IMG/VR virus record: IMGVR_UViG_2531839662_000023
Source: a virus
Lineage: Duplodnaviria > Heunggongvirae > Uroviricota > Caudoviricetes
DNA length: 26,750 bases
Direction: 5' to 3' (one strand)
The notes beneath the pieces were generated by a model. That model was not told where the DNA came from, did not search any database, and saw only the letters and a program-made list of their open reading frames with translations. The translations under genes and the position numbers were made by a program. Of this stretch, positions 1,981 to 19,345 are shown in pieces; position 1 is the stretch's first letter; each line of letters opens with the position of its first letter.

Positions 1981-2871
1981 TCAGGCTGCCAGATCATTGT
2001 TTCCGATGGAAGCATAATAAGCTTTTTCTGCTTCTGCCGGAGGAGTATGGCCCAGCCTTCCCAGCAATCGTCGATTGTTATACCAGTCCACCCACGTTAG
2101 TGTGGCCAGTTCCACTTCTGCACGGTTTTTCCAGCTCTTACGGTGTATTACCTCCGCTTTGTAAAGACCATTGATGCTCTCAGCCATCGCGTTGTCATAC
2201 GAGTCGCCTGTACTCCCTGTTGATGCCAGTAATCCGGCTTCTTTTAGTCGCTCCGTATAGGCCAGTGACACATACTGAGAGCCTTTATCGCTGTGATGGA
2301 TGGTGCCAGACGGACGACGGGCCCACAACGCCTGCTCCAGCGCATCCAGCACGAATGTCGTTTCCATAGACGATGAGACCCGCCACCCCACGATGTATCC
2401 GGCAAACACATCAATGATGAACGCCACATAGACGAAGCCCCGCCATGTGCTGACGTAAGTAAAATCAGCCACCCACAGCTGGTCAGGTCGTTCTGCCACG
2501 AACTGACGGTTTACGCGGTCGCCTGCGGCAACGGCTTTCCGGCTGATGGTCGTACGGACCTTTTTACCCCGGAGAACACCGGCAAGTCCCATAACCGCCA
2601 TGAGGCGCGCCACTGTACATCTGGCCACCCTGATTCCTTCCCGTAACAACTGACGCCAGACTTTACGCACACCGTACACCTGATGATTTTCATCGTATAC
2701 GCGCTGTATCTCTCTCTTCAGCCAGTCATCGTGCTGCGCACGGGCACTGCGTTTATCCGGATGATGTCGCTGTTGCTGACAATGGTAATACGTTGACGGG
2801 GCAATATGCAGTTCGCTGCATACCGGTCCGACCCCGTACTGCTCACGCAGCTTATCCAGCAGTGGCATCAT
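1981..2871 (-). CDS. IS3-family transposase OrfB (DDE integrase core)
   Basis: 296 aa with an rve-type DDE region (WVADFTYV...HHSDKGSQY...[10 protein letters not shown]). Overlaps orfA by 4 nt, the usual arrangement for programmed frameshifting in this family. Confidence 0.85.
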
Positions 2872-3194
2872 TTTTTCCAGAGGCGGTCGAACTCCGCCTT
2901 CGCAAAATAAGCGGAAGCCTGGCGAAGGATATCGTTACTGCGGCGCAGTTCACGATTTTCACGTTCCAGCTCTTTCAGACGCTGACGTTCAGCGCTGGTG
3001 AGCCCACCATCACCGCCCCCGGTATCCCGCTCATGCTGGCGAACCCAGACACGCAGAGTCTCCGGCGTACAGCCAATCTTTGGGGCAATGGAACAAATTG
3101 CCGCCCACTGTGAGTCATATTCATCCTGACTTTCCAGAACCATACGAATCGCCCGCTGACGGACTTCGGGGGAAAAACGAGTATTTTTAGTCAT
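2868..3194 (-). CDS. IS3-family transposase OrfA (HTH)
   Basis: 108 aa beginning [22 protein letters not shown] with a leucine-zipper-like C-terminus ([27 protein letters not shown]). Recalled as IS629/IS1203-type OrfA. Confidence 0.85.
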
Positions 3195-16167: not shown

Positions 16168-16304
16168 TGTTTGAGTTTAATATGGCAGAACTTCTTCGCC
16201 ACCGCTGGGGGCGTCTGCGCTTATATCGTTTCCCCGGTTCTGTTTTGACCGATTACCGAATACTGAAGAATTACGCCAAAACCCTGACAGGAGCAGGAGT
16301 ATGA
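16164..16304 (+). CDS. ylcG: Small protein (46 aa), YlcG-like
   Basis: Own translation: [46 protein letters not shown], overlapping the rusA stop. Identity assigned by position. Confidence 0.4.
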
Positions 16305-16389
16305 AGTCAGAGATAACAATCAACTAATACTGTTTTGTTGATTTTTGCTTGTAATTGGCGTTCTGGTCTGATTTTTGTGGAGTAAGTTG

Positions 16390-16773
16390 ATGCGTGATAT
16401 TCAGATGGTTCTTGAGCGTTGGGGAGCGTGGGCGGCTAATAATCATGAAGATGTGACCTGGTCGTCCATTGCCGCCGGTTTTAAGGGATTAATTACTTCA
16501 AAAGTAAAATCTCGCCCGCAATGTTGTGACGATGACGCGATGATCATTTGCGGGTGCATGGCCCGTCTGAAAAAGAACAACAGCGATTTGCACGATTTAT
16601 TAGTAGATTATTATGTAGTCGGTATGACATTCATGTCACTGGCAGGTAAGCATTGCTGCTCTGATGGTTATATCGGGAAAAGGTTACAGAAGGCTGAGGG
16701 CATAATTGAAGGGATGTTAATGGCATTAGATATCCGGTTAGAGATGGATATCGTTGTTAATAACTCTAATTAA
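16390..16773 (+). CDS. quuD: Late-gene antiterminator Q (phage 82 type)
   Basis: 127 aa from [22 protein letters not shown] with Cys-rich zinc-binding segments. Last gene before the late region. Confidence 0.8.
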
Positions 16774-16789
16774 TATGCCAATTGTTTAC

Positions 16790-16825
16790 TAAAAATTATT
16801 AAAAATGGGGCGTTGAGACGCCCCC
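16790..16825 (-). terminator. Rho-independent terminator 3' of the porin gene
   Basis: Stem GGGGCG(16807-16812)/CGCCCC(16819-16824), followed on the minus strand by ATTTTTAATAATTTTT. Confidence 0.5.
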
Positions 16826-16962
16826 AAAAATAAAGGGTAATATATAACAGAAGGTTTATATAGTTAGAAGCAAGGTTGTGCTTCTAAAGGAAGTGGCTTG
16901 AGGGAGCCACTTATATGTTGGGGAGGCAACGCCTCCCGCAACATATCTTTTTCGTAATCAGA

Positions 16963-18060
16963 TTAGAACTGGTAAACCAGACCTACAGCAACGATGTCAT
17001 CAGTGCTTACACCGAGTGCTTTAGTGAAGTCATTTTTGTCAAGCAGGTTGATTTTGTAATCAACGAAAGTAGACATATTTTTGTTGAAGTAATAGGTTGC
17101 ACCTACATCAACATATTTGACTAAGTCCTGATCGCCCCATACTCCAAGATCCTTACCTTTAGATTGCAGGTAAGCAACGGACGGACGCAGACCGAAATCG
17201 AACTGATATTGTGCAACAGCTTCGAAGTTTTGGGCTTTATTAGCAACGAAGTGATCAGCAAATACAGTCATATTCTGGGTTTCAGAATAGGTAGTGGCCA
17301 GGTAAATGTTGTTAGCGTCATATTTCAGACCTGCGGCCCAAACTTCTGCATTTTTACCGGAAGCAAATACTTCAGGAAGAACTTTCCCTGCATTAACTTG
17401 AGTGTCGGTACGATCAGATTTCGCATAAGTTGCACCGATACCGAATCCTTCGTATTCATAGGTAGCAGAGAAACCGAAGCCATCACCGTTACCTTCAGTG
17501 TAGTTATCGAAATCGCTACGATCGTTTTTGCCTTGGTACTGAGCAGCAAAGTTCAGACCATCAACCAGACCAAAGAAGTCGTTGTTACGATAGGTTGCAA
17601 CACCAGTTGCACGTTGAGTCATGAACACGTCGGTTTGAGTCCAAGTGTCACCACCGAATTCTGGCAGGACGTCAGTCCACGCACCGATGTCGTATGCTAC
17701 ACCGTAGTTACGGCCGTAATCGATGGAGCCGTAGTCACCGAATTTCAGGCCAGCGAAGGCAAGACGGGTTTTATCTTTGGAGGAACCTTGAGATTCAGCG
17801 CGGTTGCCTTTGAATTCATATTCCCACTGACCGAAACCAGTCAGTTGATCGTTGATTTGGGTTTCACCTTTGAAGCCAAGATGGGCATAAGTAGTATCAC
17901 CATCATCTGCATCATTAGAGGAGAAGTAGTGCTTAGCATTAACTTTCCCGTACAGATCCAGCTTGTTACTGTCTTTATTATAAATTTCAGCTGCCTGAGC
18001 AGACATCGCCATCAGTACTGATGCAGCTACAGCAGAAATTGCCACTGTTAATTTTTTCAT
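16963..18060 (-). CDS. nmpC: General porin, OmpC/OmpF/PhoE family (NmpC-like), intact
   Basis: 365 aa from [30 protein letters not shown]..., with signal peptide and a C-terminal beta-strand ending in F (VGLVYQF). The track ORF adds 20 aa upstream. Confidence 0.85.
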
Positions 18061-18487
18061 CGTGAGCCCTTTTTTTGAACTATTATTAAAAAATGATGTC
18101 ACTGCGCGATAAATATTCATCTAATCAATGTGATTATTTCAAGATGTAAGTTTTGGTTTCTCGTTTGATTTGTGAAGTAGATCTCTATTTTTATCTGAAC
18201 TTTTTTCTATCGAATCCTATTCATGGCTCTTGGCTGAATAAAAATAAATCTATTAGCCAATTTATATTAACGGCTGTTATTTATAAGCGCTCTATAATTT
18301 GAAGGTTCAATTTAAACCGGCTAAAAATAACACTGGAAATTATTTTTTGGTTATTTGTTGAGATTTGCTTATGTATTTGTAGTGGTGTTTTCAATACTCG
18401 GTAGCATTCTCTCAAATATCATTTAGTGGTTTACGTACGTAAAAAATTGGTTATGCTGTTAAGAGTGGTTACTTCGTCACACAGCTT

Positions 18488-18520
18488 AAACCCGCCGTCG
18501 AGCGGGTTTTTCCATTTTTT
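18488..18520 (+). terminator. Rho-independent terminator upstream of the lysis cassette (tR'-like)
   Basis: Stem CCCGC(18491-18495)/GCGGG(18502-18506) followed by TTTTTCCATTTTTTG, about 115 bp before essD. Confidence 0.5.
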
Positions 18521-18632
18521 GAGTCTCGATATTAGCTGATAACCCAATACCTGAGTTATTCACTGACTCCGAGTCTGTTACGTTTCGTAGTATTCCCTCA
18601 ATTTACACCCGCTTTGTCTGCGAGGTGGGGTT

Positions 18633-18848
18633 ATGAAATCCATGGATAAGTTAACAACGGGTGTCGCCTATGGCACCTCAGCAGGTAGTGCCGGGTACTG
18701 GTTTTTACAGCTGCTAGATAAAGTCACTCCCTCACAGTGGGCAGCAATAGGTGTGCTGGGTAGCCTGGTATTTGGCCTGCTGACGTACCTGACAAACCTT
18801 TATTTCAAGATTAAAGAAGATAAGCGCAAGGCTGCGAGAGGTGAATAA
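18633..18848 (+). CDS. essD: Holin (phage 21 S-like pinholin)
   Basis: 71 aa with two TM segments and a charged C-terminus ([13 protein letters not shown]). GGTGGGG RBS. Confidence 0.85.
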
Positions 18849-19345
18849 TGCCTCCATCATTACGAAAAGCCGTTGCTGCTGCTATTGGTGGCGGAGCAAT
18901 TGCTATAGCATCAGTGTTAATCACTGGCCCAAGTGGTAACGATGGTCTGGAAGGTGTCAGCTACATACCATACAAAGATATTGTTGGTGTATGGACTGTA
19001 TGTCACGGACACACCGGAAAAGACATCATGCTCGGTAAAACGTATACCAAAGCAGAATGCAAAGCACTCTTGAATAAAGACCTTGCCACTGTCGCCAGAC
19101 AAATTAACCCGTATATCAAAGTCGATATACCGGAAACAACGCGCGGCGCTCTTTACTCATTCGTTTACAACGTGGGTGCTGGCAATTTTAGAACATCGAC
19201 GCTTCTTCGCAAAATAAACCAGGGCGATATCAAAGGCGCATGTGATCAGCTGCGTCGCTGGACATACGCTGGCGGTAAGCAATGGAAAGGCCTGATGACT
19301 CGTCGTGAGATTGAGCGTGAAGTCTGTTTGTGGGGGCAACAGTGA
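18848..19345 (+). CDS. rrrD: Endolysin (lysozyme, SAR-type N-terminus)
   Basis: 165 aa. Hydrophobic N-terminal signal-anchor ([18 protein letters not shown]) and T4-lysozyme-like catalytic region (EG...[16 protein letters not shown]). Confidence 0.85.

Follow-up and report, generated by a model that had tools for sequence, protein, structure and literature searches.

The closest described relatives of the locus presented here are the porin region of the Escherichia coli prophage DLP12 and of phage PA-2, and the late promoters of lambda and the Shiga toxin (Stx) phages. In the literature, IpeX is described as an RNA of 167 nt that originates from DLP12 and is made within the porin transcript. 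It is also reported to lower OmpC and OmpF. The DLP12 lysis genes have been reported to be Q-dependent by read-through. In Sakai, the transcription start site (TSS) of PR' has been mapped by dRNA-seq and the PR'-to-tR' distance of 258 nt by dRNA-seq and Term-seq, and in this phage group qut lies partly between the -35 and the -10. The 6S RNA of lambda is 194 nt long. Earlier work on the DLP12 nmpC/PA-2 lc porin and IpeX is reportedly that of Highton in 1985, Blasband in 1986 and Castillo-Keller in 2006.

The segment described here (positions 16,774 to 18,632 with its neighbouring genes) lies in a window of 26,750 nt, the whole stretch of DNA that was analysed, from the Caudoviricetes record IMGVR_UViG_2531839662_000023. 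Judged by its sequence, it is the Q-to-lysis part of an E. coli DLP12 (qsr')/PA-2-type lambdoid prophage. Its sequence identity is 99.9-100% both with K-12 DLP12 and with E. coli chromosomes that carry the annotation quuD-porin-essD-rrrD, and at least 80% of the segment is present in 2393 of 5426 complete E. coli genomes. The identity is likewise 99.9-100% with K-12 NCM3722 and with the flanks in MG1655, with the order quuD, antisense porin and essD kept, and the 3' UTR of the porin gene is 100% identical to that of phage PA-2 and MG1655. In addition, the region of 434B marked as non-homologous to 434, which spans ylcG into the holin gene, matches DLP12 at 99.8%, so the Q gene and late promoter of 434B are apparently DLP12-derived, and this viable hybrid phage appears to use the same Q/late-promoter segment. 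The locus, an nmpC/lc porin gene with the 3'-end regulatory RNA IpeX, is thus already known, and what is added here is a corrected architecture. The segment most probably consists of two independent, non-interfering units, a porin unit on the minus strand and a late unit on the plus strand, with the porin cassette separating the Q gene from the pR' that belongs to it. The genes are as follows:

16390..16773, plus strand: quuD, Q-type late antiterminator, 127 aa with the RefSeq ATG as start (the open frame begins at TTG 16375)
16963..18060, minus strand: intact porin gene nmpC/lc, 365 aa, with a signal peptide and a C-terminal Phe
18633..18848, plus strand: essD, P21-type holin (PF04971, E 2e-35; annotation), predicted to be the first late gene served by pR'

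QuuD matches PF06530 (Phage_antitermQ, E 4e-53), is 78% identical to the Q protein of phage 933W and more remotely resembles the solved Q21 protein (E 7.6e-7); quuD is annotated in K-12. Downstream of the holin gene essD, a lysozyme gene was found by Pfam profile search. The porin ORF is uninterrupted over 16963-18120 on the minus strand, with the accepted start MKKLT at 18060 giving 365 aa. The protein matches the Porin_1 profile (PF00267) end to end (1-337 of 337, E 2e-156), ends in ...VYQF and can be placed among the general bacterial porins, in the NmpC/Lc/OmpD subgroup. By annotation, it matches a RefSeq porin in NCM3722, an IS5-split pseudogene in MG1655 and lc in PA-2. The IS5 target TTAG (17021-17024) is empty here, whereas K-12 MG1655 carries IS5 at this place; the IS5-free form is the common state. 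The claim of the original prediction that an intact porin gene lies antisense at this locus is borne out by this continuous ORF and the unoccupied target. It had also placed the gene in the cargo slot between Q and S; the gene does lie between Q and the lysis cassette, but the exact slot is the Q-to-pR' gap and not the pR'-to-S interval.

Salmonella OmpD and other chromosomal ompD orthologues are 74-78% identical at the protein level to the porin described here, but they are not placed in a prophage Q-to-S context. The porin cassette brings its own terminator and, upstream, a conserved block containing a CRP site; 933W lacks the cassette, and relatives carry other cargo instead. These features are those of a moron, and the cassette can be classed as such, an autonomous lysogenic-conversion cassette with presumed promoter activity.

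The 3' end of the porin transcript contains the following features:

16796..16962, minus strand: porin 3' UTR, the IpeX region, 167 nt that begin just past the stop codon and run to the last base of the terminator tail
16913..16946, minus strand: IpeX hairpin 1, 15 pairs and one bulge (fold and 9-variant alignment)
16891..16912, minus strand: IpeX hairpin 2, AAGUGGCU / AGCCACUU (fold and 9-variant alignment)
16864..16887, minus strand: IpeX hairpin 3, UUAGAAGCA / UGCUUCUAA (fold and 9-variant alignment)
16841-16862, minus strand: weaker AU hairpin within the porin 3' UTR
16807..16824, minus strand: intrinsic terminator of the porin/IpeX transcript (terminator scan), a 7-bp GC stem followed by AUUUUUAAUA

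Three hairpins had been predicted 3' of the porin gene (16921-16938, 16892-16909 and 16866-16885), and they are contained in the stems of hairpins 1, 2 and 3, respectively. The strong terminator predicted beside them was recovered by the scan at 16807-16824, with the tail ATTTTTAATA, and the region proposed as the source of IpeX fits, at 16796-16962, the published 167-nt DLP12 locus within the porin transcript. The possibility that 16807-16824 is a bidirectional terminator that also stops transcription coming from Q was rejected, as its plus strand is followed by the A-rich tail CAAAAAUAAA and is not a terminator in that direction. The minus-strand RNA from 16965 to 16796 has a predicted folding energy of -62.9 kcal/mol, compared to -30.8 +/- 3.6 kcal/mol for shuffled sequences (z = -8.98), with none of the 200 shuffles as good.

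The IpeX stems are maintained across nine alleles with 87-100% identity. The terminator stem is unchanged in the nine variants, the stem of hairpin 3 is retained with one G-U change and a varying loop, six pairs of hairpin 2 are invariant while the CFT073 and U1 alleles cannot form its top pair, and in hairpin 1 the pair that closes the loop has changed from C-G to U-A in E. albertii, a compensatory change. This single compensatory pair in 47 is too weak for statistical support, because the alleles are too similar to each other. A search of Rfam 15 gave no family at the gathering score for either IpeX or the late leader, and up to an E-value of 1 only chance matches were obtained (Trp_leader at 20.5 bits, snoRNA). 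IpeX is apparently without an Rfam model, and the absent match therefore says nothing against its identity. No IpeX-like sequence was found 3' of chromosomal ompD orthologues in Salmonella, Citrobacter, Enterobacter and others, indicating that this UTR is specific to the phage-borne porin.

It is unlikely that the 3' hairpins merely stabilise the mRNA or terminate it, with no trans role at native expression. IpeX is said to have been found as a multicopy suppressor in the 2006 work of Castillo-Keller, with no pairing with ompC identified. A review states that its regulation does not rely only on complementarity, and both the absence of an Rfam family and the single compensatory pair would agree with a stabilising role. 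On the other hand, several independent papers treat IpeX as a repressor of OmpC and OmpF, the three strong conserved hairpins exceed what termination needs, and the chromosomal orthologues do without this UTR.

The late unit on the plus strand is made up of four elements:

18430..18443, plus strand: 14-bp perfect palindrome TTTACGTACGTAAA over the pR' -35 and spacer, candidate Q-binding element
18452..18457, plus strand: predicted pR' -10 TATGCT, 16 nt after TTTACG, aligning with the annotated pR' of 933W and VT1-Sakai
18460..18482, plus strand: initial-transcribed block TAAGAGTGGTTACTTCGTCACAC, probable pause or Q-engagement region
18488..18520, plus strand: tR'-like hairpin (AAACCCGC / GCGGGUUU) with a U-rich tail (terminator scan), stem-loop at 18488-18509

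Based on homology, the module at 18430-18515, downstream of the porin gene, can be identified as the late promoter pR', with a predicted TSS at about 18464. Positions 18429-18511 align with 933W and VT1-Sakai exactly over the annotated promoter, qut and first terminator, and the edges of the homology are sharp, at the -35 and past the T-run, in nine different contexts. The start-of-transcript motif TAAGAGTGGTTAC has a single copy in the window, at 18460-18472, and a search of 16774-16962 gave nothing resembling the conserved late-promoter motif. The first 13 bases of the initial-transcribed block are invariant in an alignment of nine independently found pR' units, and the 47 module variants, all chosen by the motif of this block, are nearly identical over it. 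A clear -10-like hexamer for a sigma-dependent pause was not seen in the block of the window, which has TACTTC where 933W has TACATT.

The hairpin at 18488-18509 with its T-run is the only terminator-like site found by the scan on the plus strand between pR' and essD, and in 933W its homologue is the first of the terminators annotated past pR'. The PA-2-type allele of this hairpin has a stem mismatch (GCTGG), and the three modules that have diverged most carry an unrelated GC hairpin with a T-run in its place. The offset of the predicted TSS agrees with the PR'-to-tR' distance of 258 nt in Sakai. As the PR' transcript of the Stx phages runs these 258 nt to the second terminator, transcription in these phages passes the homologous first hairpin at least in part. 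In the accessible text of the Term-seq supplement to Adams et al. (2021), essD, nmpC, ipeX and quuD have no entry.

Between the porin gene and this module, three further features bear on where transcription could start:

18061..18190, minus strand: predicted porin 5' UTR and promoter region, based on hexamers and a CRP site
18076..18109, plus strand: sigma-E-like promoter (tGAACTa, 16 nt, TCACT) with +1 at about 18109, apparently the published 'essDp' of Rueggeberg et al. (2015)
18293..18298, plus strand: TATAAT of the original prediction, without support as a promoter

The porin promoter would consist of a -35 TTGAAA (18142-18137) and a -10 GAATAT (18118-18113), with a TSS at about 18106; these hexamers were picked by eye and were not called by the promoter scan. 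A CRP-like site, TGTGAagtagaTCTCT, lies at 18171-18186, about -72.5 from this putative TSS, and a CRP site is annotated at the equivalent place in the PA-2 record. The block 18061-18190 is nearly invariant among seven alleles, one of which is a remnant without Q and lysis genes.

Rueggeberg et al. (2015) are cited as having reported the sigma-E-dependent essDp as a lysis promoter. The amplicon of Pasqua et al. (2021), numbered -121 to +650, has its primers at 17988 and about 18757, and the +1 of essDp is thereby placed at 18109. Numbering this amplicon from the essD ATG (-650 to +121) was considered and rejected, as it gives a poorer fit than a +1 at 18109, which also meets the sigma-E-like motif. 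It is nevertheless quite improbable that this promoter, back to back with the porin promoter, is the working DLP12 lysis promoter and that QuuD acts there and not at 18430-18464. The published report, the coincidence of primer mapping and motif, and the high conservation of 18076-18109 speak in its favour, but the same block is porin 5' UTR, and its conservation is explained by the porin leader. In the abstract of the 2015 report, essDp was reportedly defined in silico. In addition, the reporter fragments (17988-18757) also hold the conserved pR' module and thus cannot tell the two promoters apart, while Q proteins load promoter-proximally and the Q-specific dyad is located at 18430. Both promoters could coexist, as the hairpin at 18488 would still lie in the path of sigma-E transcripts started at 18109.

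The original prediction paired the TATAAT at 18293-18298 with the terminator at 18488-18520 as a possible pR'/tR'-like pair. The hairpin of this pair is supported as part of the late-promoter unit with homology to 933W, and the TATAAT is not supported. A promoter at this hexamer, with a leader of about 210 nt ending at the terminator, is highly improbable: the hexamer is a perfect consensus present in most alleles, and the leader would resemble the 6S RNA of lambda, but TATAAT occurs at chance frequency in the window (15 observed, 15.9 expected), a -35 partner at 16-18 nt was missing in the promoter scan, and a TGn is absent as well. PA-2, a working phage, has TATGAT at this position, and nowhere in the intergenic region is the sequence more variable than in the flanks of the hexamer. 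The homology shared with 933W, SfII and PhiR40_1 does not start until 18429-18434, and the homologous pR' lies about 135-160 nt further downstream.

A late promoter directly after Q (16774-16960), from which transcripts would run antisense through the porin gene to the lysis genes, is scarcely credible: in 933W pR' does overlap the end of Q, and with no canonical plus-strand terminator between Q and 18488, any transcription leaving Q, such as N-modified pR transcription, would cross the porin gene antisense, but the conserved module has no match in 16774-16962, this stretch is always co-inherited with the porin gene as its 3' UTR and persists in a remnant without Q and lysis genes, and the dyad that belongs to this Q cluster lies at 18430 and not beside Q. 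The expectation that late transcription from a promoter nearer Q would have to read through the porin gene finds no support, with pR' downstream of the porin gene and its motif only at 18460-18472.

The placement of pR' at 18430-18464, apart from Q, is also seen in relatives. Here, about 1.66 kb (the porin cassette) separates the Q stop at 16773 from the -35 at 18430, and a like separation with other cargo occurs in many relatives. Across a set of 80 related contigs of prophages, the same module is found 42 to 2480 nt away from Q, and the gap usually holds antisense cargo, defence genes included. Seven dyad types in the pR' spacer (about -34 to -21) track eight of nine Q protein clusters in these contigs; the ninth cluster, apparently a partial QuuD-like sequence, has the cluster-0 dyad, and the dyads of other clusters include GCGTACGC and TGGAATTCCA. 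This tracking suggests the dyad at 18430-18443 as a likely Q-binding site, although the covariation could partly reflect linkage instead of binding specificity.

A broader proposal, for which we consider the chances evenly balanced, is that in prophages of the QuuD/Q933 family the Q-to-pR' gap is a distinct cargo slot insulated from late transcription, unlike the pR'-to-S slot that holds stx. The slot would almost always be filled antisense, in one case by porin and IpeX as a 'receptor swap', in others by anti-phage systems such as Kiwa, KAP NTPase, PDC-S42, PDC-M53A and PDC-M68A, and Q specificity would be set by the short dyad over the -35 and spacer, travelling with the Q allele across the cargo. 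As a corollary, the Q-loading promoter of the DLP12 lysis genes would be 18430-18464 and not the sigma-E essDp. In a limited literature search, no clear precedent for a Q-to-pR' defence hotspot was found, which does not establish that there is none.

The two-unit model builds on the gene identities, RNA fold, promoter-module homology, uniqueness of the module in the window and Q-dyad covariation observed here, and takes the activity of IpeX and the Q-dependence of the DLP12 lysis genes from the literature. In the porin unit, nmpC/lc would be transcribed from a presumed CRP-assisted promoter (about 18106-18190) to the terminator at 16807-16824. IpeX, released from the porin transcript according to the literature, would then lower OmpC and OmpF, and the lysogen would swap host porins for the phage porin. 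In the late unit (18430-18515), with the dyad, the -10 TATGCT, a TSS placed approximately at 18464, the conserved block and the hairpin, only an RNA of about 52 nt would be made without Q, provided that the hairpin terminates efficiently. Once QuuD is made, RNA polymerase would be modified at pR', presumably through the dyad, and read through into essD-rrrD-rzpD/rzoD. With the porin cassette upstream of pR', late transcription would start past the porin gene and never cross it.

Remodelling of the host outer membrane by a phage-borne porin and its 3' UTR RNA is classic lysogenic conversion and established biology, and it probably limits superinfection by phages that use OmpC. The late promoter predicted for DLP12/PA-2-type prophages, on the downstream side of the porin cassette, shares homology with the promoter from which Shiga toxin is expressed. 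This affects the reading of the published DLP12 'essDp' reporters, whose fragment holds both candidate promoters. The dyad offers a concrete, testable candidate for Q binding, and the Q-to-pR' gap is a place to search for prophage defence genes.

Compared to the known systems, the porin gene and its stop-to-terminator UTR of 167 nt are the same as in the DLP12 nmpC/PA-2 lc and IpeX locus. The late unit is homologous to the pR'-qut-tR' unit of 933W, H-19B and Sakai Sp5 (the source of StxS) in its promoter, the dyad TTTACG-nn-CGTAAA, the -10, the initial ~25 nt of the transcript and the first hairpin. In 933W, the late unit overlaps the end of Q and the cargo (tRNAs, stx) lies downstream of pR', whereas here the antisense cargo, 1.66 kb long, precedes pR', and about 115 nt separate the hairpin from the start of the holin gene. 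In the Stx phages, a second terminator at +258 defines StxS; the terminator scan found none here, and a StxS-like 3' fragment is therefore not expected. The Q/pR'/6S RNA/tR' system of lambda follows the same logic as the unit proposed here, in which a constitutive late promoter with a Q-binding element in its spacer is followed by an early terminator that is read through into S, R and Rz when Q is present. However, lambda Q belongs to another protein family than QuuD, which is of the Q21 and Q933 type (PF06530), the leader predicted here is ~52 nt compared to 194 nt in lambda, and the Q gene and pR' are not adjacent in this locus.

The 2.6 kb segment at 16300-18900 matches many E. coli chromosomes at 99.9-100% identity, including that of the K-12 strain NCM3722, and is annotated there as quuD - porin - essD - rrrD (antiterminator, porin, holin and lysozyme genes). 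The MG1655 counterpart is the cryptic prophage DLP12, in which the porin gene nmpC is split by IS5. In addition, the 1986 lc record of phage PA-2 matches the window at 100% identity over the 189 bases that separate Q from the porin stop codon. Because the element, judged by its sequence, is DLP12/PA-2 itself, the finding was already known. At least 80% of the segment is present in 2393 of 5426 complete E. coli genomes, and 36 sequenced phages also carry it; an intact porin is the usual state of the locus. The following genes are present:

16390-16773, plus strand: Q-type antiterminator (Pfam PF06530, E 4e-53)
16963-18120, minus strand: uninterrupted porin ORF, accepted start 18060, 365 aa (Porin_1 full model, E 2e-156)
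18633-18848, plus strand: P21-type holin, with lysozyme and spanin genes also on this strand

The original prediction of an uninterrupted antisense porin is borne out by the continuous ORF, the full Porin_1 match and the IS5 target TTAG (17021-17024), which is occupied in MG1655 and empty in the window. Starting at the in-frame ATG at 18120 would make the porin 20 codons longer (18061-18120, minus strand); RefSeq and PA-2 start instead at the ATG at 18060, giving a normal signal peptide. In UMNF18, a genome with 100% identity, an IS3-like element of the IS1203 family is annotated under the match to 16300-18900, and the window lacks that insertion there. Elsewhere, Rfam's ALIL pseudoknot, the frameshift element of IS3-family transposases, is matched over its full length (121.5 bits; 2797-2913, minus strand), which indicates that an IS3-family insertion sequence lies on the left side of the window.

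The sequence 3' of the porin is strongly structured. Between the stop codon and 16796, the minus-strand RNA has a folding energy of -62.9 kcal/mol, compared with -30.8 +/- 3.6 in dinucleotide shuffles (z = -8.98), and contains the following predicted elements:

16913-16946, 16891-16912 and 16864-16887, minus strand: three strong hairpins (1-3)
16841-16862, minus strand: weak AU hairpin
16807-16824, minus strand: intrinsic terminator of the porin transcript, tail AUUUUUAAUA (terminator scan)

All three hairpin intervals reported earlier fall inside the strong stems, with the terminator at 16807-16824. The small RNA IpeX, earlier attributed to this region, was also correctly named, and this identity is already known. 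A recent review describes the IpeX of DLP12 as a 167 nt RNA made from the porin promoter within the porin transcript and then processed; the stretch that begins with the base after the porin stop (16962) and ends with the U-rich tail (16796) is likewise 167 nt long. In other papers, IpeX is cited as a repressor of ompC and ompF. Across nine E. coli and E. albertii alleles (87-100% identity), hairpins 1-3 and the terminator retain their stems and substitutions fall mainly in loops; the changes include a single compensatory pair (C-G to U-A) plus three G-U. This pattern fits a conserved IpeX structure, with variation too low for covariation evidence. A search of Rfam gave no model matching the region. 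No IpeX-like sequence was found after the stop codons of chromosomal ompD orthologues (Salmonella, Citrobacter, Enterobacter and others), whose proteins are 74-78% identical to the porin; therefore, the UTR belongs to the phage-borne porin lineage. A 69-aa ORF (16915-17124, plus strand) lies antisense to the porin 3' end and hairpin 1. The PA-2 record names it 'ORF1' and the 434B annotation gives it as a hypothetical protein with an RBS, but it is probably not a gene.

The late promoter was located using the porin-holin intergenic region (18121-18632) as a query against phage records. This query matched the 36 phages that carry the porin and, at 18429-18511 only, more than 300 further records, most of them Shiga-toxin phages. 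In 933W and VT1-Sakai, the match is exactly the annotated pR', 'qut' site and first rho-independent terminator, a unit whose sequence overlaps there with the end of Q. QuuD and the Q of 933W share 78% identity. When nine contexts are aligned (window, PA-2, CFT073, RM9245, U1, SfII, PhiR40_1, 933W and VT1-Sakai), homology begins sharply at the -35 region and ends just past the T-run. The module consists of:

18430-18435, plus strand: pR' -35 TTTACG, aligned with 933W/VT1-Sakai, 16 nt spacer to the -10
18452-18457, plus strand: pR' -10 TATGCT, from the same alignment
near 18464, plus strand: inferred transcription start
18460-18482, plus strand: initial-transcribed block TAAGAGTGGTTACTTCGTCACAC, first 13 bases invariant in the nine contexts
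18488-18509, plus strand: tR'-like hairpin AAACCCGC/GCGGGTTT with T-rich tail, from the module alignment

The second annotated terminator of 933W ends 258 nt downstream of position 736 of the locus, and dRNA-seq and Term-seq in strain Sakai gave the same 258 nt for the PR'-to-tR' distance; these two facts place the start near 18464. The 26.7-kb window has a single copy of the block TAAGAGTGGTTAC. The TATAAT at 18293, originally proposed as a pR'-like promoter, does not hold up: the window contains 15 TATAAT against 15.9 expected, the promoter scan found no -35 partner, PA-2 has TATGAT, and the site lies where the intergenic region varies most. The terminator proposed alongside it is part of the true module, as its 18488-18509 hairpin is homologous to the first terminator of 933W.

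We infer that this hairpin is the functional tR' here, since without one, lysogens would produce holin and endolysin from a constitutive pR'; the terminator scan of the window gave no second terminator between it and the holin gene. In Shiga-toxin phages, the PR' transcript extends to a second terminator at +258, and therefore the first hairpin is no complete stop there. The three most diverged modules carry an unrelated GC-rich hairpin and T-run in place of the usual sequence, which argues that a terminator-like structure is selected at this site. A common allele (PA-2, the loci numbered L094 and L095, and others) has GCTGG for GCGGG in the 3' arm, giving a stem mismatch; alternative CAGCU/AGCUG pairing is possible. 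In the essD leader, about 17 bases (CTGCTTTTTTGCGATA...) present between hairpin and holin start in PA-2, TW08637, CFT073 and RM9245 are missing at about 18567/18568 (plus strand) in the window and K-12. A predicted 9-bp hairpin (about 18605-18632, plus strand) covers the holin ribosome-binding site and start region. The 434B annotation gives two holin starts, S71 antiholin and S68 holin, so this hairpin may be the dual-start control structure of P21-type holins.

A lysis promoter has also been published, apparently at a different site. In Pasqua et al., the reporter amplicon is described as spanning -121 to +650, numbered from the start that Rueggeberg et al. 2015 defined; the primers map to 17988 and about 18757, placing +1 at about 18109. 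Around this position are found:

just before about 18109, plus strand: sigma-E-like motif (tGAACTa, 16 nt, TCACT) in the porin leader
start near 18106, minus strand: likely porin promoter (-35 TTGAAA, 18 nt, GAATAT), back to back with the sigma-E-like site
18171-18186: CRP-like site, also annotated in the PA-2 record

The published DLP12 lysis-gene promoter thus appears to be a site other than the pR' module. The reporters of Pasqua et al. cannot tell which promoter Q uses, because the fragment has both.

The resulting map places the porin cassette between Q and pR', not between pR' and the lysis genes:

roughly 16775-18428: terminator, IpeX UTR, coding sequence, 5' UTR and upstream regulatory block

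The late start lies about 370 nt past the porin start codon and points away from the porin, so the antisense late transcription originally predicted is not needed. On the plus strand, the scan gave no canonical terminator from Q to 18488, and the tail that comes after the hairpin at 16807-16824 is A-rich. The sole antisense crossing of the porin would be read-through of the early-right operon leaving Q. A remnant in Trh52 (E. coli O84:H7, L089 2301-3960) keeps porin, IpeX UTR and upstream block between ybcM and yedK and lacks Q, pR' and lysis genes; homology stops at the pR' -35. This supports the module boundaries and suggests selection for the porin cassette on its own.

Scanning viral contigs with the initial-transcribed motif recovered 80 prophage loci. 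The distance from the nearest upstream Q gene end to the motif falls into classes of 42-75, 633-865, 1182-1710 and 2279-2480 nt. The porin is confined to loci with 1669-1688 nt and is antisense every time; of 16 other representative gaps, 15 likewise have their largest ORF in antisense orientation. Cargo in the viral contigs L095-L174 includes Kiwa KwaA/KwaB (KwaB by PADLOC, E 2e-150), a KAP-family NTPase, an alpha/beta hydrolase, small lipoproteins and the candidate defence proteins PDC-S42, PDC-M53A and PDC-M68A (the latter noted PDC-M68A/HNH), making the gap a possible defence hotspot.

The Q proteins of these loci form nine clusters at 75% identity. Seven distinct dyad-symmetric elements, each followed by an A5 or T4 tract, occupy one promoter position (about -34 to -21) and track eight of the nine clusters:

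TTTACG-TA/AT-CGTAAA: QuuD/Q933W cluster, also a 71%-identical singleton
GCGGTCCGC: other Q cluster
GCGTACGC: other Q cluster
TGTTATAACA: other Q cluster
TGGAATTCCA: other Q cluster
ATTCG-TTA-CGAAT: other Q cluster
GCGCACGC: other Q cluster

The exception, a singleton Q 95% identical to QuuD with the cluster-0 dyad, is probably a partial sequence. The downstream transcribed block is common to all dyad types, the loci having been selected by that motif. The pattern is independent of the Q-to-pR' distance, and thus the dyad is a good candidate for an allele-specific Q-binding element. Since linkage, not specificity, could contribute, the dyad at 18430-18443 is kept as the putative Q-binding element of the window. 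Such a position is consistent with qut, which in phages of this group is generally described as lying in part between -35 and -10.

Modest additions, each open to direct testing, are the revised promoter map, the dyad specific to Q and the slot for antisense cargo that separates Q from pR'. In phage 434B, the region marked non-homologous to 434 is a 99.8% match to DLP12, from ylcG into the holin gene; therefore, this Q and this late promoter, separated by the porin (plus IS5), appear to serve a plaque-forming phage. In E. coli U1 (L090 1917-4650), the order is quuD, antisense porin, pR' module and Shiga-toxin-phage-like sequence with tRNA-Ile, tRNA-Arg and tRNA-Arg, and therefore one prophage carries cargo both upstream and downstream of pR'.
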